DNA of 32,000 nucleotides from Trichodesmium erythraeum IMS101 (lineage in GTDB: Bacteria > Cyanobacteriota > Cyanobacteriia > Cyanobacteriales > Microcoleaceae): positions 7,650,001 through 7,682,000 of the forward strand of contig NC_008312.1 in the NCBI RefSeq assembly GCF_000014265.1. The letters are read 5' to 3'. The translations under genes and the position numbers were made by a program. Below the pieces are notes generated by a model that ran no database searches, was not told where the DNA came from, and worked only from the letters and a program-made list of their open reading frames with translations. This document shows positions 5,521 to 30,942 of this stretch, piece after piece (position 1 is the first letter of the stretch; each line of letters starts with the position of its first letter).

Positions 5521-5540
5521 GTCTAAGAAAAAGAAAAAAA

Positions 5541-6640: not shown

Positions 6641-6724
6641 TCAGCTAATCCTGTGTATTTTCGGCGACTTTTAGATTGAATTGGTAGGAAAAAAAAGCTG
6701 ATGATTTTGATATTTGTACAGTTT

Positions 6725-7347: not shown

Positions 7348-7363
7348 TTCCCTTTAAAGGGAA
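7348..7363. promoter_or_regulatory. 16-bp perfect palindrome about 90 bp upstream of the ABC-ATPase start
   Basis: ttccctttaaagggaa is self-complementary with no spacer. It lies in the 380-bp gap between the repeat arm and ATG 7453. Confidence 0.3.
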
Positions 7364-7452
7364 TAAAAAAGTAAACTTCAGTATTTCAAGCCTCTGGCTT
7401 CAGCCGGAGATAATGATAACTGATAACTAAAACGACATCTTACACCTGAAAA

Positions 7453-13586: not shown

Positions 13587-13625
13587 AAATTCTCCTGTTT
13601 TTGATCTTTTTACTAATAGCTTGAT

Positions 13626-15050
13626 CTAACTTCTTCGCACAGCTAACACCGTAATGTCATCAAATTGTGCTGCATCTGCTATATAATCAAATAATTTCTC
13701 TTTAATGCGACTCATCAATTCTAATGCAGAATTAGCCGGTTTTTCCACCAATTCTTTCAGCCTTTTGTCTGTAAATAACTTTCCTTCAGGACATTTAGCT
13801 TCAGTCACGCCATCAGTATAACCTATGAGCATTTCTCCAGGCTCTAACTTAACTTCCTGAATTTCAAACTTCATATTTGGCATCATCCCTACAGCAGGTC
13901 CAGTAGAATTTAGTATTTGCCTTATGATACCATCTTGATTAATAATAAAAAGTGGTTCATGTCCTCCATTCACATAACTAACTAAACCTGTCTCTGGATC
14001 TAGCACCCCAAAAAATAATGTAGCAAACATACTCATTTGCCAATGGTTTTGCACAACGTAGTCATTAGTAAGGCGAACAGCTTGAAGAGCATTCTGGTGA
14101 ATTAAATTAACTGAAGTTGCAGTTTCTTGTAATTTACTTTCCCCAACAGAAAAGATACGAATTAAGCTGCGAAATAAAGCCATAAACAATGCTGCACCGA
14201 CTCCCTTATCACAAACATCTGCTATAACCAACCCTATTTGATCCTTGGGCAGGGTAAAAGCATCGTAAAAATCTCCGGCTACTTGCTTTGCTGGATGAAA
14301 ACAGGCAACTATTTCCCAATTATCCAACTGAGGGATATCGTAGGGAAGAAAATCTATCTGAATTTGTCTACCCTTTTCTAATTCATTGTCAAGAGCTTTG
14401 GAATAAGTATCTAGTTGCCCATAAAGTCTGGCATTTTCTAGAACTAACCCTATGTGTTCTGCAGTTGCCTCCATTGACTCTGCCATTCTCTTAGTAAAAT
14501 GATTAGGTTCAGAGTGCAATAAAGTAATAATACCAAGCAAATCTTGACCATTGATAATTGGAACCCCCAATGCTGAACGAACGATGTAAGGTTGATTAGG
14601 TAAAGTTAACCAACGATCATCATCTTCTGTATCTGTAATTAATCCTATCTCACGATGACGACTTACCCAACCTGCAAGCCCTTTGTCTCTAACATTACCT
14701 ATCAATTTAGCCCGTTGTTCTGAGGTTACTTCAGTGCGAGTAAGAATAGCGTCTACTACTTTCTTAGATGTAGGATCTAGTAAAAATAAACTTCCCTTCT
14801 CAGTTGCAGTTACATCAGCACAAACATCTAAAGTTTTTTGTAAAGCTGCTCTAATAATCCCTCCTGGGTTAGAGTTGCATCCTGTTGTTACTTCTGTTAA
14901 TACCTTTTGGGCTAGTCGGAAGGCTGCTAGTTCTTCTTCTACTTTGGCCATTTCCTGTCGCAACCCATCTAGTTCTTTTCTAAGGTTTTCTTCTATAGAT
15001 TCCATTGTTGATAATACCCTTAACCTATTAATAATATAGAGGCTAGGCAC
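13626..15050 (-). CDS. GAF-domain PP2C (SpoIIE/RsbU-type) serine phosphatase, IcfG-like
   Basis: It has an N-terminal coiled-coil segment (EENLRKELDGLRQEMAKVEEELAA), then a GAF-like region (GSLFLLD...GLAGWV...SALGVPI). The PP2C/SpoIIE motifs follow: AGDFYD, IADVCDKGVGAALFM, GYTDGVTEA and DDITVLAVRR. The track start at 15050 is GTG. The first ATG (MESIEENL) is at 15005 and is an equally plausible start. Confidence 0.9.
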   Translation of the reverse strand: MPSLYIINRLRVLSTMESIEENLRKELDGLRQEMAKVEEELAAFRLAQKVLTEVTTGCNSNPGGIIRAALQKTLDVCADVTATEKGSLFLLDPTSKKVVDAILTRTEVTSEQRAKLIGNVRDKGLAGWVSRHREIGLITDTEDDDRWLTLPNQPYIVRSALGVPIINGQDLLGIITLLHSEPNHFTKRMAESMEATAEHIGLVLENARLYGQLDTYSKALDNELEKGRQIQIDFLPYDIPQLDNWEIVACFHPAKQVAGDFYDAFTLPKDQIGLVIADVCDKGVGAALFMALFRSLIRIFSVGESKLQETATSVNLIHQNALQAVRLTNDYVVQNHWQMSMFATLFFGVLDPETGLVSYVNGGHEPLFIINQDGIIRQILNSTGPAVGMMPNMKFEIQEVKLEPGEMLIGYTDGVTEAKCPEGKLFTDKRLKELVEKPANSALELMSRIKEKLFDYIADAAQFDDITVLAVRRS

Positions 15051-15333
15051 TGATGACTAGGAAATAATTGCAACCTAGCCCTACCTTTTTGATTTATAAT
15101 ATCAAATCTCCATTTAAAATAGGGAGTAAGTACATTAAATCGTAGCATTATTTTCGCGGACTAGTAACATATCATTATATTGCTTTATTGTTGATTAGGT
15201 AAACTTCTCCCTAACTTTGACAGGTATCATGAGATTTTCCTGTGACTTATTTATTAATTTTAATTATAGCAGTCATCAGTTAAATTAGGTTATTTTCCTT
15301 CCTCTCAAATTGAGTCACAATTATGGATGGTGT

Positions 15334-15365
15334 GGGCGAATTACAATTCGCCCCTACTTTTGTCT
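15334..15365 (+). terminator. Orphan terminator-like hairpin in the STAS-phosphatase spacer
   Basis: gggcgaat / taca / attcgccc forms an 8-bp GC-rich stem with a tetraloop, followed by ctacttttgtct on the + strand. No + strand ORF lies upstream. On the minus strand no U-tract follows the hairpin. Confidence 0.35.
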
Positions 15366-15891
15366 AGTAGACATCTACACAAACTCAATCTTTACTCAAA
15401 TATTCTAAGGGTTTGAGATTAATTATCCCAGAACTCTAATAGGCTATTCAGATACTTCTGAAGTTGCACATAAGGGACAACTGGGTAATTCAGCCTCAAA
15501 AATTTGGGCTCCACTTATGAGGTAATACAGTTCTACTAAACTTATCCAAACTTACATGGAACATGAATTGCATAAGCTTTGGAGATAGCTTAGGTGTTTC
15601 ACTCTTATGCCACTAACCGCAGTATGTAATTTATCACGACCCAGGCAACAAAATCGCCAGGAAGCTCAAGATACTTATTTACTTAGTTTTCGCTCATTAC
15701 TCATATTGCTACAATAATATCACTTAGTATTGTATAACTTTAAATAAGTAAAGTAAATTTTTATTGAACTGTCAAGATATTCTTCTCCTGTGTTAATAAT
15801 AATATATTCTATTCTCACTTTCCCATAGGACACGCTTATTGAAAATTAGAGAACAGGACTTCCCGCCAGGAGAGTTAAACTTCTATCTTAG

Positions 15892-16230
15892 TTATGATAT
15901 CGACTTCTGATAGTCATCGAGCTCTTGTAAATAAACACTTTTATCGAAACCAGTTTTTTTAATAGTCTCCTTTACCATCTCTTGAACCCCTACCATATAA
16001 ATATTAACATCTGTTCCCATTTTTTGTTTAGCGAAAATCAATACCCGTAGACCCGCACTTGCCATAAATGTTAAGTCTTGCATCATTAAAAAAAGTTTTG
16101 TCGGCTTTTTTGCTGCTGCCTCCTCTACTTTTGTTTTAAAATCAGCAGCTGTCGCCCCATCTAACTCTCCAGATAACGTTATTTTAACAAAACTATCTTT
16201 AATTATTTCTAAGTCTGCCGTAAAAGCCAT
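15892..16230 (-). CDS. STAS-domain anti-sigma-factor antagonist (RsbV/SpoIIAA-like) 1
   Basis: A 112-aa ORF with an ATG start and an AAGGA Shine-Dalgarno. It has the L.GELD......F motif and the conserved phosphorylatable-Ser context LTFMASAGLRVL. Confidence 0.85.
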   Translation of the reverse strand: MAFTADLEIIKDSFVKITLSGELDGATAADFKTKVEEAAAKKPTKLFLMMQDLTFMASAGLRVLIFAKQKMGTDVNIYMVGVQEMVKETIKKTGFDKSVYLQELDDYQKSIS

Positions 16231-16500
16231 AATTTTTCCTTTGTTGTTGATTTTTTTTCTATTGTAGCAATTTCAGGTCATTGTGAAATTTTTAGCCTCT
16301 TTAGAGAACCCTTCTAGTATCAATGCCCGGGATTAATTTTTTGACTCAGGAGTCATATGTGAGAATTAGGCTATACGAGAAAAAGATTAAAAAATACTCC
16401 AATACACCTGATATCCTCTAATCTATACAGATATTCTATTCAACCTCCCTACTCCCAATTCATAGATATGATCATAAGCTCTATAATATCATTTCCGACT

Positions 16501-18621
16501 TTATTTACTTACTAAAATAACTATAGATCGATCCCCAAGTAATAACCCATGTTGATTTTCTAAAACAGGTTCGCTCCCAAGTTCCCAAACATCTTCTGGC
16601 GAAGCACAAGCAGTATTAACAAAAATATGCCAATGTTTCCCATCTGATAAACCGGGAATGTTAAACCAGAGAGAGTCCCAGTGCATATTCATTGCTACAT
16701 AAATATCATTATCTTGCTTTGTCACCTCTGTAGCATGTTTACCACAAAGCATAAAAGCCAAAGTTCGAGAATTATCTGACCAGTCAGCATTCCAAGCTTG
16801 AGTACCATGCCAAGTAATATCAGATTTTCCACTACCTACATAATCTTGATTTCGGAAATGGTTCTGATTTTTCAATATAGGGTGAGCTTTCCGAAATGCC
16901 ACACAATTCTTCACAAACCTAAATAACTCAGCATTAGTTTCCAGAAGCTCCCAATTTAGCCAATTTAGTTCTGAGTCATGGCAATAAGTATTATTATTAC
17001 CATTTTTACTCCGCCCTATTTCATCTCCCATCAGCAACATAGGAACACCTTGACTAACCATCATAATTGCGATCGCATTTCGCATCTGACGGCTACGCAA
17101 AGCATTTATTCCAGGGTCATCACTCCAACCCTCTGCCCCACAGTTCCAACTTTCGTTATCATTAGCACCATCATTATTATTTTCACCATTAGCTTCATTA
17201 TGCTTATCATTGTAGGAAACCAAATCAGCCAAAGTAAAACCATCGTGGGCAGTAATAAAATTAATAGATGTTGCCGGTCCACGACCTTGCCAAGCATAGA
17301 GGTCTGGAGAACCCTGTATCCTTTGTGCCATTTCCCCTACAGTACAATCACCTTTAATAAACTTGCGAATTGCATCGCGATACTTACCATTCCATTCGGC
17401 CCAACGTCCAAAAGCAGGGAAGGAACCCACTTGATATAAACCACCAGCATCCCAAGCTTCTGCAATCAACTTACAGTTAGCTAAAATTGGGTCAAAAGCC
17501 AAAGTTTCTAATAATGGAGGATTTGCTAAAGGTGCGCCCCAGGGGTCACGTCCAAGAATTGAAGCCAAATCAAATCTGAAACCATCAATATGATATTCAC
17601 TTGCCCAATAGCGCAAACAATCTAACACCACATTACGAACAATGGGGTTATTACAATTAATAGTATTGCCACAACCACTAAAGTTAAAATAATAACCTTC
17701 TGGTGTTAGCATATAATATGTCTTATTGTCAATACCCCGGAAAGAAATTGTCGGACCGTTTTCATTTCCTTCTGCTGTGTGGTTGAAAACAACGTCAAGA
17801 ATTACTTCAATCCCATTTTTGTGCAGGTCTTTAACTAGAGTTTTTAACTCATCCATCTGCATTCCTAACTTACCTGTCGCTGCGTACCCTGCCTTAGGAG
17901 CAAAAAACCCGACTGTACTATAACCCCAATAATTGTAGAGCATTTCTCCTGTGATGGGGCTGGGCCGAGAATTTTCAAACTCATCAAATTCATAGATAGG
18001 CATCAACTCCACCGCGTTAACACCTAATTCTTTGAGGTAAGGAATTTTTTCGCGAATAGCAGCAAATGTGCCTGGATGTTTGACACCAGAAGAAGGATGA
18101 GCCGTAAAGCTACGAACGTGCATTTCATAGATAATCTGATCTTGTGGTGGAATTTCTAGTGGGCGGTCATTTTCCCAGTCAAAATCATCATAGGGAATTC
18201 TCCCCCGGTGTTGATAAATATCATCCCAGTTTGGTGTTTTTCCCCAAACATCCCTACCCCCAATAATCTTAGCATAGGGGTCCATGAGAATTTTACTTTT
18301 GTCGAACCATTGACCCTCATGGAAATTATTCGGTCCATCCATGCGATAGCCATATTCGATGTTCTCAACATCAAGATCAAAGACAATCATACAATAAACA
18401 TTCCCTATCCGAAATTCTTCAGGAAAAGGAATTTCTGCCATTGGTTTTAAAGCACCTTTTTGAAACAAAACCAATGTACAAGATGTAGCATAAGAAGAGA
18501 AGATGGAAAAGTTTACTCCTCCAGACACCATAGTTGCACCGAATGGAAAAGGTTTTCCACTACGGAGCTTAAAGTCACCATGACTGTGGGTAGGATGGAT
18601 ATCAATACGCTCTTGTAACAT
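16501..18621 (-). CDS. glgX: Glycogen debranching enzyme (isoamylase-type, GH13)
   Basis: A 706-aa ORF. It has the four GH13 conserved regions: DVVFNHT, GFRFDLASIL, IAEAWD and FITAHDGF. The N-terminal PFGAT....GVNFSIFS CBM48-like start is typical of GlgX. Confidence 0.95.
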   Translation of the reverse strand: MLQERIDIHPTHSHGDFKLRSGKPFPFGATMVSGGVNFSIFSSYATSCTLVLFQKGALKPMAEIPFPEEFRIGNVYCMIVFDLDVENIEYGYRMDGPNNFHEGQWFDKSKILMDPYAKIIGGRDVWGKTPNWDDIYQHRGRIPYDDFDWENDRPLEIPPQDQIIYEMHVRSFTAHPSSGVKHPGTFAAIREKIPYLKELGVNAVELMPIYEFDEFENSRPSPITGEMLYNYWGYSTVGFFAPKAGYAATGKLGMQMDELKTLVKDLHKNGIEVILDVVFNHTAEGNENGPTISFRGIDNKTYYMLTPEGYYFNFSGCGNTINCNNPIVRNVVLDCLRYWASEYHIDGFRFDLASILGRDPWGAPLANPPLLETLAFDPILANCKLIAEAWDAGGLYQVGSFPAFGRWAEWNGKYRDAIRKFIKGDCTVGEMAQRIQGSPDLYAWQGRGPATSINFITAHDGFTLADLVSYNDKHNEANGENNNDGANDNESWNCGAEGWSDDPGINALRSRQMRNAIAIMMVSQGVPMLLMGDEIGRSKNGNNNTYCHDSELNWLNWELLETNAELFRFVKNCVAFRKAHPILKNQNHFRNQDYVGSGKSDITWHGTQAWNADWSDNSRTLAFMLCGKHATEVTKQDNDIYVAMNMHWDSLWFNIPGLSDGKHWHIFVNTACASPEDVWELGSEPVLENQHGLLLGDRSIVILVSK

Positions 18622-18697
18622 GAATCTTTGTGAATATATTTTTTAGTACGAGCACGATAGAAGTTTTGTTGTTTAAATCAACTAGCATAGTGTTAGT

Positions 18698-19057
18698 TTA
18701 TTTGGGTTCGTTTGTTTCTTCCAAGAGTTTTTCCCTACCTTGATCAACTGTTTCAGCAGTTGTCAAAAAGTCTAAAAACCCAGTCACAGACATAGTATCT
18801 TGAAGTTCTTCACAAAGTCCTACTAATACGGTTCTTCCTTCCTTGGCATTTGTTTGTCGATGTAATGATAGTAACATTCGTAACCCAGCACTAGACATAT
18901 ATGGTACCTTAGTCATATCCATCAAAATTCTGCTACCTGTTTCTGCTAGAGGTATAACTTGTTTTTGAATATCAGGTGCTGTACTAGCATCAATATCTCC
19001 ACTTAGTTCTACTACTTTAATTTTTTCTTCTGTTTTAATATTAATTTCTATTGCCAT
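18698..19057 (-). CDS. STAS-domain anti-sigma-factor antagonist (RsbV/SpoIIAA-like) 2
   Basis: A 119-aa ORF with an ATG start. It has the L.GDIDASTAP.....I motif and the phosphorylatable-Ser context VPYMSSAGLRMLL. It lies 76 nt upstream of glgX. Confidence 0.85.
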   Translation of the reverse strand: MAIEINIKTEEKIKVVELSGDIDASTAPDIQKQVIPLAETGSRILMDMTKVPYMSSAGLRMLLSLHRQTNAKEGRTVLVGLCEELQDTMSVTGFLDFLTTAETVDQGREKLLEETNEPK

Positions 19058-19367
19058 TTTATTTAGTTAAATAATATTTAGGTGTTTTAGATTTAGGTTA
19101 GGTTGAGGGTAGCTCATACAAATTATGCCACGGATATAGTAGATTAAGAGTGTAGCAGGGTACCTTCATGAAATGTCAAGTACCCCATACTGCATACTCT
19201 ACAATTATTCTCGGCGCGTTACGCTTTCCTGCGAAATGTTGCGCAAATACTTTTAATGTCGCCCAACGAAACCCACTCTACTGGACTTTAATACCTCTCC
19301 CCATGGCCATCTCCTTCAAGGCGACGGCCAGGGGGGTTAGGTTTCACCCATAGTGTTTCTTGTCTAA

Positions 19368-21188
19368 TTAATTAGGTACAATATTGACCTTAACTTTCAC
19401 CCGTTCCTTAGTATCAGGCAACTTCACAAAAAGTTTATCCGCATCAAAATCACTGTAAGGTTTACCATCAATTTCTACAGAACCAATTTTAATGCTACCA
19501 GGAGGCAGAATATCTGGTGATACTCGTAAAATATTATCAGGGAAACCACTAGGAATAGGCTTAAAATAAAAATCCATTGGCTGCTTAGTAACCAATAGAT
19601 TAGTATAAACTGCAGCTAGATAGCATAATTCTGTAGAGTGATAACCGCTCATAGAGTGGGAACCTTTACCTCGTTCATTACCACTTGCCAAGAAAGGGAT
19701 ACCATTAGCAAGAACATTGAAATAAACCCCACCATCTTCTGTATCCAGAAACCAGGCGTTGTAAAAAGCTGCAGCTTCCCGCCCTAAACGATGATATTCT
19801 TGATCTTTAAGAGTTCCTGCAAGAATATAATAAGCCAGAATAGACTGTTCTTGCTGCCACCAAGCTTTGCGATCATGCCAAACAAAACGATGATTTTTTT
19901 CATCTTCTCCTAATGCTCTTTCCACCACGTCATACCAACCACCTCGTTGTTGATCACTCCCTACTGCTGGCATCACCTCAGCAATTTTCTTTGCCAGTTC
20001 AACATAAGTATCCTTAGGTTTGAGGCTATTCATCCGCATCAAATTCCAAGCAATTTTCATATTGTGACCAATTACTGCCCGGTTTTGCTGCCATCCCCAA
20101 GTATGATCTGCACTCCAGTCTTCAAAGAATTTTTCATTGACAAAGGGGCAGTTTTCGTAATCTGGAAAACGCTTTTCAATAGTATCGAAAGTGTATTCGA
20201 GCATATCTGCATATTCAGGTTTTTCTGTCGCTAACCAGAGATTAATTAGATATGCTGGTGCATGGTCACCAACTGAGTTCCAGTTTTTAGTACCTTTGTT
20301 CCGACCTAATGACTCGCTCAGAGGATCTAGAGTAATAGGATCTAGGTGGGAGTAATAACCACCGCGATCAGTTTTATCTAGAAAAAAGTCGTTGAATAAC
20401 TTAATAGTTTTCTCGGTATCGTCCATTATCCTAGGGTCGCCATTAATGCGATAAGTTTGTAATGGACCTGCCAAGGCATAAATTTGTTCGTAAGCGGGAA
20501 TAGCATCATAGTCATCACCAAATTCTGAAGCGAAAATTTTCTGCTCTCGTTCCCCTTGCACATCGATACCGTGATACCAATAAACTATACCTTCATCTAA
20601 GTCCACAAATCTCATGTGGTCTCTCAGATATTCAGTACCTTTCTCAGCTGCTTCTAGGAAAATTTCTTCCCCAGTCATCATATATGCTGTAGCCATCCCA
20701 TAAACCATCCGGGAGATAGTATCTGTTTCTTGTCGGAAATTCACCTGAGACCTTACACCAGAAAGACTTAAAGTTGTGCGATAGTTGCGGTAGTCTATTT
20801 CTTCACCAGCAAATTGAGCTTTGACATAAAAATTAGCTAGGGAGCGAACCTGGTGTACCCACCAGTTTGATTTTTCAAATATATAGTCATCTGCTTGACG
20901 ACCGACAAATACTATTTGTTTAGCTTCAAATATGGAACTATCTGGGTAAAAAACGCCATAAGTGAATACATACCTACCAGGCACCAGCATCGATCGCATA
21001 GCACCTGTAGCATCTGGGTATGCTTCGTCTAAGTTTTGTACTAGCTTAGCATAACTAGTAGGAGTTAACTTGGCTTTAAATTCTCTGCCATCTGTTGTTT
21101 TGAGCCCAAAAATATCTGTGCCTGAGTCGAAGTTTGTAACATACCCGGCGATCAAGTCGGAAAAAGTAAACTCTACTGGAGTAGTCAT
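19368..21188 (-). CDS. AGE-superfamily (N-acylglucosamine 2-epimerase-like, alpha/alpha-6 barrel) protein with N- and C-terminal extensions
   Basis: A 606-aa ORF with an ATG start. The central roughly 400 aa show repeated aromatic-rich helical hairpin motifs (RMVYGMATAYMMTG, YEQIYALAG, GDHAPAYLINLWLAT, IGHNMKIAWNLMR, WWQQEQSILAYYILAG, GYHSTELCY). These resemble AGE/YihS-type barrels as I recall them. The assignment comes from motif recollection, not from an alignment. Confidence 0.55.
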   Translation of the reverse strand: MTTPVEFTFSDLIAGYVTNFDSGTDIFGLKTTDGREFKAKLTPTSYAKLVQNLDEAYPDATGAMRSMLVPGRYVFTYGVFYPDSSIFEAKQIVFVGRQADDYIFEKSNWWVHQVRSLANFYVKAQFAGEEIDYRNYRTTLSLSGVRSQVNFRQETDTISRMVYGMATAYMMTGEEIFLEAAEKGTEYLRDHMRFVDLDEGIVYWYHGIDVQGEREQKIFASEFGDDYDAIPAYEQIYALAGPLQTYRINGDPRIMDDTEKTIKLFNDFFLDKTDRGGYYSHLDPITLDPLSESLGRNKGTKNWNSVGDHAPAYLINLWLATEKPEYADMLEYTFDTIEKRFPDYENCPFVNEKFFEDWSADHTWGWQQNRAVIGHNMKIAWNLMRMNSLKPKDTYVELAKKIAEVMPAVGSDQQRGGWYDVVERALGEDEKNHRFVWHDRKAWWQQEQSILAYYILAGTLKDQEYHRLGREAAAFYNAWFLDTEDGGVYFNVLANGIPFLASGNERGKGSHSMSGYHSTELCYLAAVYTNLLVTKQPMDFYFKPIPSGFPDNILRVSPDILPPGSIKIGSVEIDGKPYSDFDADKLFVKLPDTKERVKVKVNIVPN

Positions 21189-21983: not shown

Positions 21984-22586
21984 TTAGCTAGCTTCGATCG
22001 CTTCGATAAATTTTTCCATAAATTCATCGGTTACACCAGGGTGCTTTGCTGTGATTAAGTTACCATCAATAACTAATTCTGCCGTTTGTTCCCCATCAAA
22101 TATTACATTAGCTCCAGCATTTTCTACGTCACAAATGATATTATGAGCGCAAGTTACTTTTTTATCTTTAAGCATTTCATTGTCAGCACAAAACAGCCAT
22201 AAACTATGACAAATTGCTCCTAACTTTACATTTTCTGTATTGACTGCATTGCGCAAAAATGCTACTGCTGGTGCTTGGTTTTTTTCGCCTTTTTTAGGGT
22301 TTACCTGATAACGCAACCGATCCATAGCATAAGCACCAATACATATAATACCTTTATAGTCTGAAGGCTTAATATCGTTAACTTCTGTGCTAACTGTCAC
22401 TTTTTCTTCAATAACATTGTTCTCTGGGTTAGAAGCAAAGTGTAATTCTTTTTGCCCCCATAAATGAGTAATATATTCTACTTCATAGCCTTTTTCAGGA
22501 AAAAATTCATTAAATTTACGGTATTCTGTAGAATCAAAGTGGTCTTCAATTAAAACTCCAATTTTGCCTTTTGTTGCTGCCACCAT
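21984..22586 (-). CDS. DJ-1/PfpI-family (class I glutamine-amidotransferase-like) protein
   Basis: A 200-aa ORF with an ATG start and a strong AGGAG Shine-Dalgarno. It has KIGVLIEDHF at the start and the nucleophile-elbow GAICHSLW. The fold pattern ends ...VIDGNLITAKHPG. Confidence 0.75.
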   Translation of the reverse strand: MVAATKGKIGVLIEDHFDSTEYRKFNEFFPEKGYEVEYITHLWGQKELHFASNPENNVIEEKVTVSTEVNDIKPSDYKGIICIGAYAMDRLRYQVNPKKGEKNQAPAVAFLRNAVNTENVKLGAICHSLWLFCADNEMLKDKKVTCAHNIICDVENAGANVIFDGEQTAELVIDGNLITAKHPGVTDEFMEKFIEAIEAS

Positions 22587-23101
22587 TTTTTTTCTCCTGA
22601 TTTTTTTCTGTAGTCTAATGAAAGAATAGTTTAACGTTATTAGGACTTATGTAAATAAACCGGTTTTCTAGGATGGATAAATCGTTGTTTTTAACAATAA
22701 ACATTAATGAAAACAACTAGGTCCCTGGGCTCACCCACATAAGTCCTTGCTATAATATTTAATACTCGGATAATAAGTAAGTAATAAAAAAGCTATTGCT
22801 TGTAGTAGAACTTAGCATAATATAAATCAGGCTTTAGTTCTACTACGAGCCTTAATTATAACTATTCTTCTGGATCTGATATAAGTCCTAGTAAGGCTTT
22901 TTCAGGGTTTCACATTACCATTGTTTATTTGCAAGACTAAAACCTACAATTGTATCCTCAGGAAATGTAACCCCTTTTTCTGATCAATCTAAATATTTTG
23001 GTAGTAATAAACAAGTAATAATGTTTTCCAGTCTACCTTATGACAATTCAAGGAATGTAAAAGTTAACATTCTTAAATATTTAAGACAATCAATGTTTGT
23101 C

Positions 23102-23665
23102 TTATGTCGTAATTAACTTCAATAGTGATTGATCAGCAAACACATCGCGGTAAAACGTTAATTGTTCAGTTTTCAAATAACAACCACCTCTATGACCACG
23201 ACGTACCCAAGTCACATTTCCCTTAGCAATAGTTTCGTTAGTTTCAAGATCCACACTCTTCCATTCAAAATATGTATGTTCTCCATAAAACATGACAATT
23301 GGCCAAGTCATAATAACTCCTGGTTGAGAAATTAATGCCCACCAATGCTTTTCCCGTTCTTTTTGTTGTTCTAGACCCTGATAAGGTCCATCTTGGCAAA
23401 AATAAACTAAATCATTCCGATACTCATCCGTTAAAATATCACCGCGTCCTTGTCTCAAAGCTTCACAATGAGTAGGCCACCAATCTTTATTTTCTTTTTC
23501 TATCTGTTCTAATGTGTAGTCATCTCCGATCGTTGGTAATGTTGCTTCTTTCATCTTGCATATCTTTTCTGCCAAAGCAATCATCTCTTTAGCAACATCA
23601 GTAGCTACTGGAACGGCTCTAGAGTAATCTGCTGCTAAGTCTTTGTAGTAACTTGTGCGTGCCAT
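23102..23665 (-). CDS. Hypothetical protein, possibly NTF2/SnoaL-like fold
   Basis: A 187-aa ORF with an ATG start, 42 nt downstream of the EthD gene, so probably co-transcribed. The C-terminal half (VMFYGEHTYFEWKSVDLETNETIAKGNVTWVRRGHRGGCYLKTEQLTFYRDVF) has the strand pattern of SnoaL-like cone folds. That fold call is weak. Confidence 0.6.
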   Translation of the reverse strand: MARTSYYKDLAADYSRAVPVATDVAKEMIALAEKICKMKEATLPTIGDDYTLEQIEKENKDWWPTHCEALRQGRGDILTDEYRNDLVYFCQDGPYQGLEQQKEREKHWWALISQPGVIMTWPIVMFYGEHTYFEWKSVDLETNETIAKGNVTWVRRGHRGGCYLKTEQLTFYRDVFADQSLLKLITT

Positions 23666-23707
23666 AATATCCCTGTTAATTGTTTTTTTACTTGGAAAAC
23701 TTAAAAA

Positions 23708-24646
23708 TTAATCAGTCAACTGATTCTTCAACATTAGATCAACTATATCATCTTGTAGTTGATTGGCAGCTCCAATATCCATAATTAGTTGTGCTACTGT
23801 TGAACTTCGTTGGCCTGCCAGCGTCATTTTACCATCATTGACAAATGTGTAAGCACTTCTTTCTGGAAATGGTCTTATTTCTTTGACATACTTACTGTGT
23901 TCGCTTACTAAGTTTTTAAAATCTTTAGATGCGAAAAGTAGTTCTAGTTCTAAGCGGTTCCAGTAAGCTATTTCTACAGCAGCTTGATAATTTAGTTCTG
24001 GTAATTCAGAGTGAGATACTCCATCGGCATCTGGTCTTGTGTTATCAACTTCATCAAATAGATGTAATCGTAGTTTCAAGACATGAGCCATCTTGGCTAG
24101 AGCCGGTGCAAAGTTCTCTTTATAGTATGAGCGAAAGTCTTCTAATTTGACTCCATCAGCTTTCCTGATCATACAATGATACTTTTCTAGCCCCAGATAG
24201 CCATTAGGAGAACCATTTTCAATTCCATCTTTAAAAGTAATAGAGTTACCGGGGCTGGTATTATAACCTATGGCTTTACTAAAAATGTTATGCTCATCAT
24301 CCATCAAAATAGTTGCTGCATTGAACCATTTGTTCCGGTCTTCTACTGTTTTAAAGGTTAGCTCAGCAATGCCATCAAAGTTTTCTTCTGCAGAAGAAGC
24401 ATCTACTAAGTCTCCTATACTAGGCCATACTCCCCCATCATTGTGAGCAACATGAAATTGCCAATATTGGTACTGACCTGGTAAACGACCACAAACTGGT
24501 CCGTGAACGTCTCTCCAATAGTCATCAAATAATTTGAGGCTTATTCCTTTTCTTTTCCACAGAAGAACATAGAAAGCTACTTGTGCTTCTTGATCACGAC
24601 TAGAATAGTCAGCAACTTTTCCTTTATTAATCAGAGCTGATACCAT
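23708..24646 (-). CDS. Tandem EthD-like (dimeric alpha-beta barrel) domain protein
   Basis: A 312-aa ORF with an ATG start. It has two halves with the EthD-type signature: VLLWKRKGISLKLFDDYWRDVHGPV and CMIRKADGVKLEDFRSYYKENFAPAL. Confidence 0.6.
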   Translation of the reverse strand: MVSALINKGKVADYSSRDQEAQVAFYVLLWKRKGISLKLFDDYWRDVHGPVCGRLPGQYQYWQFHVAHNDGGVWPSIGDLVDASSAEENFDGIAELTFKTVEDRNKWFNAATILMDDEHNIFSKAIGYNTSPGNSITFKDGIENGSPNGYLGLEKYHCMIRKADGVKLEDFRSYYKENFAPALAKMAHVLKLRLHLFDEVDNTRPDADGVSHSELPELNYQAAVEIAYWNRLELELLFASKDFKNLVSEHSKYVKEIRPFPERSAYTFVNDGKMTLAGQRSSTVAQLIMDIGAANQLQDDIVDLMLKNQLTD

Positions 24647-24877
24647 AGTTTACTATCTTGGCTTTTCAGATATTACAAGTTTATTTATAGTTTTGCTGAA
24701 CTGACCCAAAGATTTTTGAAGCTTGTTTAGTTTAGCTTCAGTGCTTCAATGAGAATCATGCTACTACTATTTGTTATTTAATTTTCTACCAAGATTTTCA
24801 ATTCCTGGCAAATTTACTCTGGACTAGACGAATCAATCATACTCCGAGTTAGTCGAAGCTGTTGAAAATGCTTATGA

Positions 24878-25243
24878 TTATTTTGGTGGGAATAATTCGT
24901 TTAATTCGTCTTTTAATTCTCCGAGAGCCCCGAAGCAACCTGCTGCTTTATTAAATCCTGCATAAACACAGGTAAATACTAGCAATTCCTCTATTTCCTC
25001 AAAAGTAGCTCCTTGAGACATTGCCATTTTAACATGAGCACCAAATGGGTTTCCAGGACCTACATGATCTTGATTAACTACATCTATTGCTACTGTAATT
25101 AGAGCTTTGGTTTTTTGGTCTATTATTGGTAGACCCCATGCTTCACCTGCTACACGAGTACAAAAGTCCCCAAATTTGGGATTGATACTATTTAAGCCTT
25201 CTTGCAGTGCTTTGTCATCTAATACTGCGTTCTTGTATGCCAT
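24878..25243 (-). CDS. Carboxymuconolactone decarboxylase-family (AhpD-like) protein
   Basis: A 121-aa ORF with an ATG start. Its motifs are WG..IIDQKTKALI.VAIDV, H......GAT.EEI.E.L and YAGFNKA, typical of small CMD-family proteins. Confidence 0.8.
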   Translation of the reverse strand: MAYKNAVLDDKALQEGLNSINPKFGDFCTRVAGEAWGLPIIDQKTKALITVAIDVVNQDHVGPGNPFGAHVKMAMSQGATFEEIEELLVFTCVYAGFNKAAGCFGALGELKDELNELFPPK

Positions 25244-25246
25244 AGT

Positions 25247-25293
25247 TATCTGTTTAATTTTTCTAGCTTTTATCTATTTAATTTTTCTAGCTT
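25247..25293. promoter_or_regulatory. 23-nt tandem direct repeat abutting the CMD-family start codon
   Basis: tatctgtttaatttttctagctt (25247-25269) and tatctatttaatttttctagctt (25271-25293) differ at one position, with a period of 24. The repeat begins 3 nt upstream (minus-strand sense) of the ATG at 25243. Confidence 0.4.
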
Positions 25294-26242: not shown

Positions 26243-29200
26243 ATGGCTGACATTGCACTACGAGACGCTAAGACTATTGGTCAAGAAAACTTTGAATCAT
26301 GGAGTAAAGGCTTTAATCCAGATAATTATCTTGATGTATTGCCTCACCCAGATAAAGTAGTTCCCTTTTATAATCCAATTGAAGAGTGGCAAAATAACCC
26401 AGAAGCAAGCACCGGAGATTACTTTTCGAGCTGGGGCCCAAATGAGGTATTAGAAGCACAAATCTCAATGGAAGAGGTAGACCAATTAGAGGTACCAGGG
26501 CTGGGAATTCTTAGGTCAGGAGATGGTAGAGTACCGTGGTTACCCAGTCCTATTGATGGAGAACCTAGCTATACTCCTTATGAAGCACTTAGAGTCTATC
26601 AGGGTAAGGGTCCTGATGGTACAGCTTTGGACCCTAGAATTCCTGGACCATTGTTCATTACTGAACCAGGGGACAAAGTAAAACTTACTCTGACAAATAA
26701 TTTAACTAAAATAGAAGAAGCAGGAAATCACGCAGCTAATGTATTCTCTAACATACATACCCACGGTTTCCATACATCTCCTAGGGGTCGTGCTGATAAT
26801 GTGCTACATTTAATAGATTCTGGAGAAACCTTTGAATATGATATTCAGGTTCCCACAGACCAAACTTTGGGTATGAGCTGGTATCACCCTCACTTTCATG
26901 GACAGACTAATACCCAACTAGCAGCGGGGTTAGTCGGAGTAATGCAAGTTAACCCTAGATTCGATGAACCAGACCTAAATAAATGGGACCCAAGCTCAGA
27001 AAACTTCTATTTGATGACCCTTAATACTTTTGGCCTTCAGCAAGTAGATCGAAAAGGTTCACCAGACGACCCACTCAACCAAAACCCTAATATTTCATTA
27101 CCTGCAGGTACACCTATAGAAATCCAGGGATTTACGGATAATGGTGACCCCATTTATGAGCTATCGGATGCTCCATTTATAGGTTACAATGCATTACCAG
27201 ATCTCTATGACCCCGAACGACCTCTGGGTAGAAACGAAGATGGTACAAATAATCCCAATCTATTTGAATATGGCGGTGGTGTTTTAGAGGCACCAGCAGA
27301 AAACGTTATTCACACTATTAATGGCCAATACAATCCCACACTTGAATTAAAGACTGGTGAGTTACAAACATTTTCACTCTTGAATGCAGATGTTAATTCT
27401 CACCATATACTTCAGTTATACAAAGAAGGGATTGATGATGATGGTAATGTAATTCTTACCCTCCAGGAAATGACTTATGTAGGTCTTGATGGTGATTCTT
27501 TTCCAGGTCGGGCGACAGAAAAAATCCGCAGAACTATGGAGGATTCACCAATCTTTCAACCAGGGCAACGGATAACTATAGATCATTCTTTTGAAGAACC
27601 AGGTAAGTATTATTTACTCTCTAATGGTACCCCAGAAATTGTTGGTGAAGATAGCCCAGAGTTGATCCAGACAATGACCAATAAATTAAAAGAAGGCCAG
27701 AAATCTCAAGGATTTGATGATGGTCACTATACTTGGGGACCCCAGGTTTTGATGACCTTTGATGTAACGGGTCTAGAAAATGAGGCTAGTCCTATTCCAG
27801 AAGCCTATGATAGCCTAGCAACAAGAGTTGAAGCACTGATAGAAAGAGTAGATTCAGCTGAGAATGGTATTGGTGTACAACGGGAACGCACATATATCTG
27901 GAGTGCAAATATTGGTGGCGCGATCGCTGAAGGCAATGCTCCAGATGACCTAGAAGTAAAGACATTTGAGGGAACTTATAGAATTAATGGCGGGTATTTT
28001 GCAGGAGGAAATGAGACTCCACTGACAATGCCTATGTTAGGTACAGCGGAAATATGGAATGTTTTTAACATCTCTGGGTTAAAAGAAGAAAGTTTTACTC
28101 CAGATCTTCCCCTCTTAGAATGGCATCCATTCCACATTCACCAAAATCCTTTTACAGTTTTAGATATTAACGGTAAGCGACTAGCAGATTTAAATAATAC
28201 CTATCTACCTTATATAGAAGGGGATACCATTGCTCTACCTCCCACTTATCAGGATGGTACAGTTACAGACACGAACCCATACGGTGTAGCAGAAACTGAT
28301 GGTGATGCTTCCTTGGTCAGAATTTATATGCAGTTCAAAGACTATGACGGTAGCTTTGTTAACCATTGTCATATTCTGTTCCATGAAGATGCAGGTATGA
28401 TGGCAGTTGTGCGGGTGATTTTGAATACAAATGATACTTGGTTGGGTTTGAGCAATGAAGAAGGAGATGCTGATGGTACAAGTATAGAACTACTCCGGGG
28501 TAGTGGTATAACAGGACCAAGCCTTAATTTGAGACCTTTTGGTTCAAATTTCACAGGTGGGGTAGATATTAATATTGATGATGTTAATTCCTTGCTACCA
28601 TTTAACGGCAATAATGTTACGGATAATGTTACTGATGTTGTTGCTATGGAGATTGAAGGAGATCATACAATTCGAGTATTTGATGGTAGGTCATTATTTA
28701 ATCTCCAAGAACAAGGTATAACAGATGTTGATGGTGATAATACTAGCTTACAAATTACTCAATTTAATCCTTTTCAAGGAGTAAATAATATTGAGGGAGA
28801 AAAAGGATCTGTTGCTACTGGTGATATTAATGGGAATAACTTTGCTGACATAGTTACTGGTATCGTTACAGAAGACGGGGTCTCTATTGAGATTTACGAT
28901 GGTGGCGATTTTCAGCTGCTTACCCGTATACTTGTGGATGGATTAACCTCTAATGAAGATGATTTAGAGAATAATCTCAATATAGCAGTGGGAGATGCTA
29001 ATGGAGATAACTTTGATGATATCTATATCACCAATAAGGGCAAATTAACGATTTTAAATGGTATTGATATTGAGAAAAAGATCAAGCTAGATGAAAATAT
29101 TGATGGGAGTGATGTAGTAGTAATAGATGCTGTTAGTCCCTATGAAAATTATACAGGGGAGATTGAGATTACCTCTGGTTATCTACTGCAGCGACCTGAA

Positions 29201-30283
29201 CCTGAAGATGATATTGTTCCTACTTCTGATTTTGATTTGTCTAAGGAAGCTTTTAATACTACTGTTCAAACTAATTCTGCTAACATTACTACATTGGCTG
29301 TTGACAAAGAACAGTTAGCAGAGAGTGAAGAGCAGGTGAAGGTTTGGACTTACACTGGAGGAGGGCACCACGGACATGGAGGAGATGATGGTAAACATGG
29401 TGAGGGTAAACATAGTGATGATGACATGAAAACCATGGATGACATGGAAATGAGTCAGGCAGGGGACTCAGAGATGGAAATGAATGATGAGGCTAAAGAA
29501 GGAAAGTCTGCTCCGCCAATTCGTCTAGATGCTGAATTTACTCCTGAAAGTGATATTAAAAATTTATCTGGTACTTTTGCTGATGTCCCTGGTCATCAAC
29601 GAGGCGAACCAGTTTTATTTGTTCAAAATAAAGAAGGGATCCGGGAGATACTTCAGCTCCGGGATGGAAATCTCTTGGCAGAAAATAAAATTGGTACGAC
29701 AGGAAATAATCTCATTAATGGAGACAATAATGGTGACAATATCTACGGACTGGAAGGAGATGATACCCTTAATGGTAATTTTGGAAACGATTTGTTATAC
29801 GGTTTTCGAGGTATAGATTCCCTTAATGGTGGTGCAGGAAATGATTCTTTTCGTGGTGGAAAAGATGAGGATACTCTAAGAGGTGGAGAAGGATCGGATG
29901 TTCTTAATGGGGAAGAAGGAAATGATATCCTAATAGGTGGAGAAGGTTCCGATATATTTGTCTTTGATACTGATGAGATATTTGATCCTGAAATTTTAGG
30001 TATTGATTCAATAACTGACTTTAATGCATCAAAAGATTTAATCGAACTTGGAGCTATGAGTTTTACCAAATTTGAGACAACAGAAGATATACAGAAGAAT
30101 TTTGCTGTTGTTTCTAGTAATAGTGATGCTGCTACATCAGAAGGATTGATTGTTTACAGTAGTCAAAGCGGTAATTTGTACTATAATACTGATGGTACGG
30201 CTCCTGGTTTCGGAAGTGGCGGTCAATTTGCTACATTAGAAGGTAATTCAGACTTGGCCGCTAAGAACTTTATCTTGGGTTAG
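26243..30283 (+). CDS. Multicopper oxidase fused to FG-GAP/VCBS-like repeats, a His/Met/Asp-rich tract and C-terminal RTX (hemolysin-type calcium-binding) repeats
   Basis: A 1346-aa ORF with an ATG start. All four MCO copper-ligand motifs are present in order: HTHGFH, WYHPHFH, HPFHIH and HCHILFHEDAGMM. Further on come GDINGNNFADIV and GDANGDNFDDIY loops, then GGGHHGHGGDDGKHGEGKHSDDDMKTMDDMEMSQAGDSEMEMNDE. About 9 GGxGxD nonapeptides and a typical RTX-protein C-terminal tail complete the protein. There is no N-terminal signal peptide. Confidence 0.9.
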   Translation: MADIALRDAKTIGQENFESWSKGFNPDNYLDVLPHPDKVVPFYNPIEEWQNNPEASTGDYFSSWGPNEVLEAQISMEEVDQLEVPGLGILRSGDGRVPWLPSPIDGEPSYTPYEALRVYQGKGPDGTALDPRIPGPLFITEPGDKVKLTLTNNLTKIEEAGNHAANVFSNIHTHGFHTSPRGRADNVLHLIDSGETFEYDIQVPTDQTLGMSWYHPHFHGQTNTQLAAGLVGVMQVNPRFDEPDLNKWDPSSENFYLMTLNTFGLQQVDRKGSPDDPLNQNPNISLPAGTPIEIQGFTDNGDPIYELSDAPFIGYNALPDLYDPERPLGRNEDGTNNPNLFEYGGGVLEAPAENVIHTINGQYNPTLELKTGELQTFSLLNADVNSHHILQLYKEGIDDDGNVILTLQEMTYVGLDGDSFPGRATEKIRRTMEDSPIFQPGQRITIDHSFEEPGKYYLLSNGTPEIVGEDSPELIQTMTNKLKEGQKSQGFDDGHYTWGPQVLMTFDVTGLENEASPIPEAYDSLATRVEALIERVDSAENGIGVQRERTYIWSANIGGAIAEGNAPDDLEVKTFEGTYRINGGYFAGGNETPLTMPMLGTAEIWNVFNISGLKEESFTPDLPLLEWHPFHIHQNPFTVLDINGKRLADLNNTYLPYIEGDTIALPPTYQDGTVTDTNPYGVAETDGDASLVRIYMQFKDYDGSFVNHCHILFHEDAGMMAVVRVILNTNDTWLGLSNEEGDADGTSIELLRGSGITGPSLNLRPFGSNFTGGVDINIDDVNSLLPFNGNNVTDNVTDVVAMEIEGDHTIRVFDGRSLFNLQEQGITDVDGDNTSLQITQFNPFQGVNNIEGEKGSVATGDINGNNFADIVTGIVTEDGVSIEIYDGGDFQLLTRILVDGLTSNEDDLENNLNIAVGDANGDNFDDIYITNKGKLTILNGIDIEKKIKLDENIDGSDVVVIDAVSPYENYTGEIEITSGYLLQRPEPEDDIVPTSDFDLSKEAFNTTVQTNSANITTLAVDKEQLAESEEQVKVWTYTGGGHHGHGGDDGKHGEGKHSDDDMKTMDDMEMSQAGDSEMEMNDEAKEGKSAPPIRLDAEFTPESDIKNLSGTFADVPGHQRGEPVLFVQNKEGIREILQLRDGNLLAENKIGTTGNNLINGDNNGDNIYGLEGDDTLNGNFGNDLLYGFRGIDSLNGGAGNDSFRGGKDEDTLRGGEGSDVLNGEEGNDILIGGEGSDIFVFDTDEIFDPEILGIDSITDFNASKDLIELGAMSFTKFETTEDIQKNFAVVSSNSDAATSEGLIVYSSQSGNLYYNTDGTAPGFGSGGQFATLEGNSDLAAKNFILG
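26600..28420 (+). other. Multicopper-oxidase (cupredoxin) region of the 1346-aa protein
   Basis: The copper-ligand motifs are HTHGFH at 26756-26773, WYHPHFH at 26879-26899, HPFHIH at 28124-28141 and HCHILFHEDAGMM at 28364-28402. Confidence 0.85.
28565..29077 (+). other. FG-GAP/VCBS-like repeat region
   Basis: There are two clear Ca-binding-type loops, VATGDINGNNFADIVTG and IAVGDANGDNFDDIYIT. They are separated by about 55 aa, as in integrin-alpha-type propeller blades. Confidence 0.6.
29357..29491 (+). other. His/Met/Asp-rich low-complexity tract
   Basis: The tract is GGGHHGHGGDDGKHGEGKHSDDDMKTMDDMEMSQAGDSEMEMNDE. It has 6 His, 6 Met and 15 Asp/Glu in 45 residues. Confidence 0.9.
29699..29962 (+). 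other. RTX nonapeptide repeat block
   Basis: The block reads TGNNLINGDNNGDNIYGLEGDDTLNGNFGNDLLYGFRGIDSLNGGAGNDSFRGGKDEDTLRGGEGSDVLNGEEGNDILIGGEGSDIFVF. This is consecutive G-G-x-G-x-D-x-[LIF]-x units. Confidence 0.9.
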
Positions 30284-30297
30284 AATTAATTAATATT

Positions 30298-30328
30298 AGG
30301 GGGTATAGTTACCCCCTTCTGATATTTT
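30298..30328 (+). terminator. Rho-independent terminator of the MCO-RTX gene
   Basis: agggggta / tagt / taccccct is an 8-bp stem with a 4-nt loop, starting 15 nt after the TAG. A T-rich tail tctgatatttt follows. Confidence 0.7.
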
Positions 30329-30645: not shown

Positions 30646-30942
30646 ATGAGAAAATACATTATTTTGTCAATCTTTTTATTCATATTGTTTTTTGCTTTTG
30701 CGCGACCGGTAGCAGCATCTTTTTGCCGTAATGACAAGGGCAACAAAATTTGTATTCTCAATATTAAACGTAGCGCTAAAAACTATTGGGAATATCGAGC
30801 AGAAGTTAGTATTAATGGTGTAAGAAAGCCATTAGAAATTTATAATTGTCGGACTCAACAGAAAATTGAAAAGAATGGTAATATTGTCAAATTTTCATCA
30901 AATGGTGCAGGTAAATTGATTTGTAGTATTCTTAATAAATAA
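30646..30942 (+). CDS. Small secreted protein with four Cys (hypothetical)
   Basis: A 98-aa ORF. Its N-terminus MRKYIILSIFLFILFFAFARPVAAS is a Sec-type signal peptide with an A-x-A cleavage site. The mature part has 4 Cys (CRND...CILN...NCR...ICS). Confidence 0.6.
   Translation: MRKYIILSIFLFILFFAFARPVAASFCRNDKGNKICILNIKRSAKNYWEYRAEVSINGVRKPLEIYNCRTQQKIEKNGNIVKFSSNGAGKLICSILNK

Follow-up and report, generated by a model that had tools for sequence, protein, structure and literature searches.

Tery_5023, a gene of the cyanobacterium Trichodesmium erythraeum IMS101, lies in a 32,000-nucleotide stretch of the genome (contig NC_008312.1, positions 7,650,001 to 7,682,000, hereafter the window, from whose first letter coordinates are counted) and encodes a 1346-residue protein in which a leaderless multicopper oxidase (MCO) core is followed by an FG-GAP type beta-propeller with a His-rich loop and by a C-terminal RTX module. 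The product is most likely an intact, catalytically competent MCO, and the best reading of its sequence and predicted structure is that of a calcium-folded extracellular oxidase exported in the manner of type I secretion system (T1SS) substrates, the exporter being encoded elsewhere. According to this proposal, to which a probability of about 0.62 is assigned as a whole, an active MCO with a Met-ligated type 1 (T1) copper site would leave the cell unfolded through a T1SS, fold with Ca2+ and acquire its copper outside, the His-rich loop being the likely capture device and the propeller serving for docking or gating.

MCOs are normally exported in a folded state by the twin-arginine translocation (Tat) pathway, or with the aid of a signal peptide. 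An MCO leaving the cell unfolded through a T1SS would need to reach its fold and pick up its four coppers in the surrounding seawater, which contains extremely little free copper, and it is this implied extracellular folding and metallation that would surprise specialists of these enzymes. How extracellular metallation is achieved is a real biochemical question, to which the His-rich loop offers a testable answer. In addition, Trichodesmium is a keystone nitrogen fixer of the oceans, and its colonies process iron from dust and give rise to reactive oxygen outside the cell. An oxidase acting there would be a candidate agent of the Fe, Mn, Cu or phenolic redox chemistry taking place at its surface, for which no specific enzyme turned up in the literature searched.

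Architecture of the Tery_5023 product

The initial annotation of this DNA described a single uninterrupted frame of 1346 codons, which the list of open reading frames (ORFs) and the translation bear out (Table 1), in a window whose G+C content (roughly 35%) and sparse coding agree with this genome. The product is identical to ABG53935.1, WP_011614229.1 and UniProt Q10UY9, where it is annotated as "multicopper oxidase, type 2", and numerous assemblies and metagenomes of Trichodesmium contain the exact sequence. A pseudogene or chance ORF was rejected because this exact sequence recurs on 23 contigs that were read (index entries in 48 blocks) with all ligands conserved. An in-frame TAA sits five codons 5' of the ATG, meaning that no N-terminal extension is possible; an upstream extension hiding a signal peptide is therefore excluded.

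The four copper-ligand motifs of MCOs, previously listed for this protein in their canonical order, were recovered by motif scan and alignment at the positions then given, namely H172-T-H174 at position 26756, W213-Y-H215-P-H217 at 26879, H628-P-F-H631-I-H633 at 28124 and H708-C709-H710-x3-H714-x4-M719 at 28364. In a phmmer search against PDB sequences all four aligned with ligand columns of an established MCO, namely the HWHG, WYHPH, HPFHLH and HCHIVEHEDRGMM motifs of the Thermus thermophilus laccase 2xu9. The Pfam profiles Cu-oxidase_3 (PF07732, aa 128-239; 45.5 bits against a cut-off of 21, E 9e-12) and Cu-oxidase_2 (PF07731, aa 591-725; 38.5 bits against 20.4, E 1e-9) both scored above their gathering thresholds. 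In alignments of 21 and 59 family sequences the ten His, the Cys and the axial Met (M719) are invariant, as are D185 and D716, with E715 being nearly so. D185 and E715 presumably are the proton-relay residues of the trinuclear site, equivalent to D112 and E506 of CueO. Since identity to Tery_5023 among the 59 sequences goes down to 38%, such invariance places the motif pattern far beyond chance.

An AlphaFold model of aa 1-1150, built on the 59-sequence alignment (predicted local distance difference test, pLDDT, 85.6; predicted template modelling score, pTM, 0.87), revealed a three-cupredoxin fold. When this model was compared with the PDB by Foldseek, Thermus laccase ranked first (E 7e-30, target-normalised template modelling score, TM, 0.77), followed by CueO, CotA/bilirubin oxidase, McoC, McoA and McoP. 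On account of this ranking the core, as modelled, is a three-domain MCO, made larger by 125 aa at its N-terminus and by insertions amounting to about 250 aa, with the alignment spanning ~680 columns for targets of ~440 aa. The best NCBIfam matches were CueO (52.7 bits against a cut-off of 525) and CopA (39.6 against 479), and Tery_5023 is not considered an equivalog of either because these scores are about a tenth of the cut-offs. The same scan gave no match to models of Mn(II)-oxidising MCOs or Fet3-type ferroxidases.

After the oxidase motifs, two FG-GAP-type loops had been noticed, and these were found as D-x-N-x-[DN]-x3-D at aa 861 and 918. The FG-GAP profile itself stays just below its cut-off in Tery_5023 (21.3 versus 22.1 bits), while PF01839 or PF13517 is recorded for most homologues. 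In a second AlphaFold model (aa 740-1346, pLDDT 74), the propeller part matched integrin alpha headpieces and WD40 propellers by Foldseek, and the propeller is predicted to pack rigidly on the oxidase core.

A His/Met/Asp tract had been proposed as a module of its own following the loops. The tract is present (5 His, 6 Met and 15 Asp/Glu in aa 1038-1092), but instead of a linear module or linker it is a disordered insertion inside the propeller, as the conserved segment that comes after it (aa 1093-1149, R-L-D-x-E-F-T-P ... G-T-F-A-D-I-P-G ... R-G-E-P-V-L-F) supplies the last blade. The four-module architecture originally drawn thus holds for the modules but not for their arrangement in a straight line, with the tract nested in the propeller and the 125-aa N-terminal extension having to be added. 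Across the 59 family sequences the tract varies from 18 to 107 aa, is nearly free of Lys/Arg and contains 13.7% His, versus 2.1% elsewhere; it usually opens with G-G-x-H-H-G, carries at least 3 His in 52 of the 59 and is found in the marine Synechococcus members too. This conserved His-rich acidic loop is the best candidate for a copper-capturing element, a function suggested by its composition.

The RTX block, for which about nine nonapeptides had been counted, contains eight to nine in perfect 9-residue register, with the strict GGxGxD form in only three of them, and scores above the gathering threshold of HemolysinCabind (PF00353, E 3e-13). The tail beyond it, formerly estimated at roughly 100 aa, measures 103 aa and aligns with the tails of RTX-bearing homologues, sharing an I-x-D-F motif and a [DEN]-[FL]-hydrophobic ending. 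It is regarded as a putative secretion signal on the basis of these features, given that no universal signal motif exists to score against. With the C-terminal 200 aa, Foldseek retrieved serralysin, alkaline protease, PrtC, AlgE R-modules and CyaA block V; of these, serralysin and alkaline protease are themselves T1SS substrates. The protein is markedly acidic, with 230 Asp/Glu versus 78 Lys/Arg, and its sole Cys is the T1 ligand.

At the opposite end, direct reading of the translation agrees with the early remark that the N-terminus has neither a hydrophobic core nor a twin-arginine. Its family consensus is M-x3-L-x2-A-Y-I-I-G-Q-x-N-F-x2-W-S-Q-G-F, and 20 of the 21 aligned sequences start at the same residue, P0055 alone having an extra N-terminal ~220 aa. 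As no signal peptide occurs in any family member examined, the leaderless N-terminus is, judging from the aligned sequences, a conserved trait of the family. Distant non-cyanobacterial relatives start with signal-peptide-like segments, so the wider clade appears to be extracytoplasmic. This suggests that the clade works outside the cytoplasm and that its cyanobacterial branch changed the export route.

The protein is listed as Tery_5023 / YP_724408.1 (1346 aa, 146.8 kDa, isoelectric point (pI) 3.92) in the supplement of Linhartova et al. 2010, with 6 RTX repeats and the class "oxidase", being one of 35 predicted RTX proteins of T. erythraeum, the highest number of any genome surveyed (PMC3034196). 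The fusion of RTX and oxidase was therefore catalogued in 2010 as well as annotated, and is uncharacterised yet not unnoticed. The main texts of the literature searched hold no mention of Q10UY9, WP_011614229, ABG53935 or Tery_5023, and nothing specific was retrieved on MCOs in connection with cyanobacteria and RTX, FG-GAP or type I secretion, or on the Trichodesmium exoproteome. This agrees with the initial annotation, to which the architecture was not familiar as a characterised enzyme, since these searches returned no characterisation and only the 2010 listing. Likewise, no description was found there of a leaderless core combined with a fused FG-GAP propeller bearing a His-rich loop and a swappable C-terminal module.

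Table 1. Coordinates of Tery_5023, its predicted domains and other features of the window
Feature	Position	Strand	Basis or remark
Tery_5023, whole gene, 1346 aa + stop	26243..30283	+	ORF list, translation, exact match to deposited protein
Conserved leaderless N-terminal extension, aa 1-125	26243..26617	+	21-sequence alignment, pLDDT 85-96
Cupredoxin domain 1, aa 128-239; HTHG (H172, H174) and WYHPH (H215, H217) trinuclear ligands, invariant D185	26624..26959	+	Cu-oxidase_3; aligned to Thermus laccase residues 44-146
Middle region, aa 240-590; cupredoxin domain 2 (~aa 355-460) and two large family-specific insertions	26960..28012	+	DSSP of the model, pLDDT mostly >90
Cupredoxin domain 3, aa 591-725; HPFHIH (H628 T1, H631, H633) and HCHILFHEDAGMM (H708, C709, H710, H714, E715, M719)	28013..28417	+	Cu-oxidase_2; 2xu9 alignment
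FG-GAP type beta-propeller, aa 733-1150, six or seven blades	28439..29692	+	~25 strands in model, Foldseek
Ca-loop motif 1, aa 861-869	28823-28849	+	Motif scan
Ca-loop motif 2, aa 918-926	28994-29020	+	Motif scan
Disordered His/Asp/Glu/Met loop within propeller, aa 1038-1092	29354..29518	+	pLDDT 22-35
RTX block, 8-9 nonapeptides, aa 1160-1243	29720..29971	+	HemolysinCabind, register, beta-roll pLDDT 81-96
C-terminal capping region and putative uncleaved secretion signal, aa 1244-1346, ending ...KNFILG	29972..30280	+	Alignment to tails of RTX-bearing homologues
Terminator-like GC-rich hairpin, 15 nt past the Tery_5023 stop	30298..30317	+	Consensus scan, pattern match only
98-aa protein, Sec-type signal, four Cys, candidate partner	30646..30942	+	Synteny
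CMD	24878-25243	-	Pfam
EthD	23708-24646	-	Pfam
NTF2-like hypothetical, 187 aa	23102-23665	-	Named NTF2-family by one source
DJ-1/PfpI	21984-22586	-	Pfam
N-acylglucosamine-2-epimerase-like, 606 aa	19368-21188	-	Pfam
Epimerase-like, STAS, GlgX-type isoamylase, STAS, GAF-PP2C (IcfG-like), RsbW-like kinase, in order	13161..21188	-	Pfam
ABC_ATPase/MRB1590-type P-loop protein, 609 aa	7453-9282	+	Seems unrelated to oxidase
3-dehydroquinate synthase (aroB)	1699-2790	-	Seems unrelated to oxidase

Family, export and proposed mechanism

From 5.8 billion proteins, 68 relatives were retrieved whose matches take in 62-100% of the query, and every one of those with a named source is cyanobacterial. They come from Okeania (77% identity), a second Trichodesmium lineage (56%), Microcoleaceae, Floridanema, Phormidium, Aerosakkonema, Argonema, many Nostocales, Gloeothece, Pleurocapsales, Geminocystis and Pseudanabaenaceae, and from marine Synechococcus, whose members are 30-39% identical and at times occur as tandem paralogues. 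Among 1.84 billion representatives clustered at 50% identity, only 26 proteins matched at E 1e-30 or better, about a dozen of them covering most of the query, and beyond this value ordinary oxidases appeared whose match was limited to domain 1. On these grounds the family is, at the sequence level, small and sharply separated from other MCOs. The C-terminal module recorded by Pfam in the 68 relatives is RTX in 27, DUF4114 in 14 and PF18885 in 2, with none in the rest, some of which still align with a degenerate RTX-like tail. By these profile matches the module is interchangeable, and RTX does not define the family.

A few additional large oxidases were observed. Two marine Synechococcus loci (L019 10010-17370 and L020 6235-20640) carry two tandem oxidase-propeller paralogues each, and L020 has besides a third, different large MCO on the opposite strand and a GMC oxidoreductase. 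The propeller-type copies whose ends were read (L019 10010-13435, L020 9983-13510) are leaderless and without RTX. Separate large MCOs of about 1450-1600 aa, encoded in L024, L040 and L084 by Synechococcus and a Methylococcaceae genome, share the C-terminus ...G-F-F, which may be a sorting signal.

In the proposed mechanism, Tery_5023 would be made without an N-terminal signal, its C-terminal tail would be recognised by a T1SS encoded elsewhere, and the chain would be threaded out unfolded. Upon contact with the millimolar Ca2+ of seawater the RTX block would fold into a beta-roll, the FG-GAP propeller and the oxidase core would fold next, and the four coppers would be taken up extracellularly, where the metal would be captured by the His-rich acidic loop, which in this lineage is also rich in Met. 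A donor would then undergo one-electron oxidation at the T1 site (H628, C709, H714 and M719), which is probably of low potential because it is Met-ligated. The electrons would travel via the Cys-His bridge to the trinuclear cluster (H172, H174, H215, H217, H631, H633, H708 and H710), where E715 and D185 would assist the reduction of O2 to water. The propeller would probably dock the enzyme to a ligand of the surface or matrix, or shape substrate access. In this scheme the motifs, predicted folds, conservation and synteny are observations, whereas export, metallation outside the cell, the role of the loop and the nature of the donor are deduced.

Type I export of Tery_5023 is well supported, if indirectly, by its sequence and modelled C-terminus, with the wealth of RTX proteins in this organism also in its favour, and is unexplained for part of the family. 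The members lacking RTX (those of marine Synechococcus, one of Pseudanabaenaceae, and P0068) are equally leaderless, meaning that RTX-dependent export cannot explain the whole family. Several other points weigh against the proposal. As indicated in the initial annotation, the window gene and Pfam scans found no T1SS ATP-binding cassette (ABC), membrane fusion protein (MFP) or TolC gene in the window, and the same is true of the homologue neighbourhoods examined. A 2010 scan of T. erythraeum with TIGRFAM models yielded two HlyB-type ABC proteins (Tery_0225 and Tery_1352) and no MFP or outer membrane protein (OMP)/TolC (PMC3034196). In the Nostocales genome HT-58-2 the oxidase gene is packed co-directionally among genes for cytoplasmic-looking enzymes. 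As for metallation, the copper ligands were assigned from motifs and alignment, and the Met enrichment of the loop is lineage-specific, with 3 or more Met in only 12 of the 59 sequences, Tery_5023 included. Finally, no expression, proteome, exoproteome or activity data for Tery_5023 were found in the literature searched.

Gene neighbourhood, electron donor and alternative readings

The genes for CMD, EthD, the 187-aa protein and DJ-1/PfpI (21984..25243, minus strand) are divergent from the oxidase. At E 1e-10 or better, 932 relatives of the 187-aa protein were retrieved, the named ones being all cyanobacterial and the best 120 being 73-96% identical; the protein matched no Pfam or NCBIfam family in the scans of window neighbours, for which NCBIfam gave sub-threshold matches or none. 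By annotation alone, the cluster at 13161-25243 matches the slr1852-1862 / icfG operon of Synechocystis, which includes Slr1853 (CMD), Slr1855 (epimerase-like), Slr1856 (STAS), the GlgX2 isoamylase and the IcfG phosphatase (PMC8670252, PMC3564720).

In 11 of 19 cyanobacterial loci, drawn from five orders, a tblastn search with the window neighbours located CMD and EthD genes, and in most cases the NTF2-like gene as well, no more than 10 kb from the oxidase homologue; DJ-1, epimerase-like and GlgX genes are often there too. The linked loci (labelled L005, L009, L011-L016, L018, L019, L089 and L090) are those of Trichodesmium, Okeania, Microcoleaceae MO_207.B10, Gloeothece and six Nostocales genomes, plus a partial one of Tolypothrix and one of marine Synechococcus. 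Linkage was absent from the loci of Aerosakkonemataceae, Argonema, Pseudanabaenaceae and four other Synechococcus, two of which have only divergent relatives. These co-occurrence counts represent a sample and not a census, at least about 14 cyanobacterial loci having come from the reference-genome scan. Gene order and orientation vary among the linked loci. In Nostocales HT-58-2 the same icfG-type set, from the epimerase-like to the RsbW-like gene, adjoins the oxidase, and there and in Microcoleaceae several cluster domains are fused into single proteins of 1095-1339 aa. The repeated linkage to a cyanobacteria-wide cluster provides a way into both the oxidase family, of which no named member is characterised in the literature searched, and the cluster itself.

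Other recurrent neighbours include VOC/glyoxalase, AtaL, NTF2/SnoaL, cupin, tyrosinase, 2OG oxygenase, GMC oxidoreductase, FMO, HpaB, O-methyltransferase, a KAS-III-like enzyme, an MFS transporter and SLH-OprB porins. Near some oxidase homologues there are also genes for CHRD+Cupin_2 proteins with RTX (L090 6065-8665) or without it (L009 5652-7682), and for a Tyrosinase+CHRD+Calx-beta+RTX protein (L091 530-3202). The presence of such RTX/CHRD oxidative enzymes suggests a shared extracellular oxidation toolkit. The oxidase reads as an accessory gene repeatedly kept beside a core cluster whose chemistry probably concerns small molecules. Since the neighbours look like enzymes of organic substrates, the guess as to the donor is tilted, without this proving anything, towards a small organic reductant (phenolic, quinol or enediol) tied to the chemistry of the adjacent genes, which receives about 45% of the weight, with 35% going to a metal ion (Cu(I), Fe(II) or Mn(II)) and 20% to other donors.

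If a metal ion were the donor, Tery_5023 would be a dedicated metallo-oxidase at the surface of trichomes or colonies, namely a cuprous oxidase, a ferroxidase or an oxidase of Mn(II), with the loop as its metal-substrate binding arm. This sub-variant of the proposal, from which it differs only in the donor, is possible although doubtful. The closest folds lie in a bacterial group that contains metallo-oxidases (Thermus MCO, CueO, McoC, McoA and McoP), the axial ligand is a Met, and the His-rich acidic loop of the family is Met-rich in Trichodesmium and marine Synechococcus, Met- and His-rich segments being known to bind Cu(I)/Cu(II) in CueO, CopA and PcoA. However, the loop is located in the propeller and not above the T1 site in domain 3 as in CueO, it is highly variable in length and sequence, and most members show no Met enrichment. 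CueO and CopA are indeed the best NCBIfam matches, but far below cut-off (for CueO, 52.7 bits versus 525), and no metal transporter or regulator is conserved nearby, where the conserved genes look like those of organic-substrate enzymes.

A broader and rather unlikely scheme can be envisaged in which the oxidase-propeller family serves, on the outside of the cell, a pathway conserved among cyanobacteria: the adjacent cluster would make or regulate a small reductant, which would be exported via the nearby MFS transporters and OprB porins and oxidised outside by an enzyme metallating itself there through its His-rich loop. If true, this would tie the carbon status of Trichodesmium to colony-surface redox, for instance to matrix cross-linking or to Fe, Mn and Cu cycling.

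The linkage in 11 of 19 loci would also fit a core that is cytoplasmic, or at least not exported, and takes part in a pathway with CMD, EthD, NTF2-like and DJ-1 proteins, the RTX tail being a minor lineage-specific add-on. In line with this, leaderless N-termini are found family-wide, leaderless MCOs such as CotA exist, several members have no recognisable C-terminal module, and in HT-58-2 the oxidase gene is tightly packed with genes of cytoplasmic-type enzymes. Such a location is nonetheless quite improbable. Folding of an RTX beta-roll needs roughly millimolar Ca2+, a level well above that of the cytosol; Ca loops of the FG-GAP kind and DUF4114/RTX tails typically belong to extracellular proteins; and the pI of 3.9 and the lone Cys agree with what is seen in T1SS substrates. 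The signal peptides of distant relatives and the RTX-tagged tyrosinase and cupin proteins encoded nearby in other genomes point in the same direction. A mainly structural or adhesive surface protein (S-layer or adhesin-like) with vestigial oxidase chemistry is very improbable, for even if FG-GAP propellers and RTX are common in adhesins and cyanobacterial RTX proteins include S-layer and motility proteins (PMC3034196), the invariance or near-invariance of 12 copper ligands and the presumed relay Glu/Asp down to 38% identity implies selection on catalysis.

Returning to the proposed extracellular oxidase, the small secreted-looking protein encoded downstream of it is kept in the same position in Okeania (L005 14237-14530, 76% identity) and in Microcoleaceae MO_207.B10 (L090 13868-14164, 73%), where its gene starts 61 nt past the stop codon of an oxidase that is itself only 47% identical. 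Because it is conserved there, and better than the oxidase, it is a candidate partner; it gave no match in Pfam or among PDB sequences, and sub-threshold matches or none in NCBIfam.

Farther downstream, a 90-aa ORF (31269-31541, minus strand) is 95% identical in Okeania at the same position, with only a weak sub-threshold match to the HVO_A0261 N-terminal (winged-helix-like) domain. The 1-kb divergent intergenic region (25244-26242) has a 24-nt tandem duplication (25246-25293) abutting the CMD start codon and short blocks conserved with Okeania, such as AGAAGTTTAATATTTTTT and AATGTGGACAAAC, which may be regulatory sites. In another part of the window (2791-7452) there are 4.7 kb without any ORF longer than 66 aa, containing a tandem duplication of 182 nt (5727-6091, 97% identical) and inverted repeats of 75 nt (4600-4674 and 6800-6874, 84% complementary). 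No match emerged when the whole window, this stretch included, was scanned with Rfam at gathering thresholds and for tRNAs.

Comparison with known oxidases and RTX proteins

Bacterial three-domain MCOs (Thermus laccase 2xu9/6wcn, CueO, CotA, McoC and McoA) have in common with Tery_5023 the four motifs, the axial Met, the HED and Asp second-sphere residues and the three-cupredoxin fold (TM 0.64-0.78 normalised to target), with a sequence identity of only 14-18%. They are 440-510 aa long, whereas Tery_5023 adds the 125-aa N-terminal extension, about 250 aa of insertions, the propeller and the RTX module, bears HTHG in place of the HWHG of Thermus laccase and has no signal peptide. Known three-domain MCOs are mostly exported by Tat or Sec, or assembled in the spore coat. 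In cuprous oxidases of the CueO/CopA type a Met-rich segment lies over the T1 site in domain 3 and a Tat signal is present; in Tery_5023, by contrast, the Met/His tract is in the propeller and the RR pair is missing. The large Mn-oxidising MCOs (MofA, MnxG, MoxA and McoA) are likewise oversized, with extra domains, and act outside the cell. None of them is known to have an FG-GAP propeller together with RTX, and they use signal peptides or accessory proteins.

The C-terminal part finds a close parallel in serralysin, alkaline protease and PrtC, which have the same RTX beta-roll and cap, an N-terminal enzyme passenger, no signal peptide and an acidic character. In this family, however, the passenger is a zinc protease, while that of Tery_5023 is a 1150-aa copper oxidase and propeller with no adjacent ABC-MFP-OMP operon. 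The 98-aa neighbour with a Sec signal is reminiscent of the periplasmic inhibitor genes found in serralysin operons. As to the propeller, the integrin alpha type has the same fold and D-x-[DN]-x-D-x3-D calcium loops, whereas Tery_5023 has only two canonical loops, a sub-threshold Pfam score and a 55-aa disordered His-rich insertion before the last blade.

The only biochemically described cyanobacterial laccase in the literature searched is that of Spirulina platensis (PMC5383238), an extracellular and unrelated-looking monomer of about 66 kDa, as opposed to the 147 kDa of Tery_5023. An analogue in design is provided by RTX haem peroxidases of the MopA type, which oxidise Mn(II) in Aurantimonas and Erythrobacter (work cited in PMC6890756) and in which an oxidative metalloenzyme is joined to RTX and presumed to be secreted by a T1SS. 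An RTX protein with an animal-haem-peroxidase domain (P0074) also surfaced in the family search. MopA-type enzymes are haem peroxidases and do not belong to the cupredoxin superfamily, so that what they share with Tery_5023 is the design of the protein and not homology.

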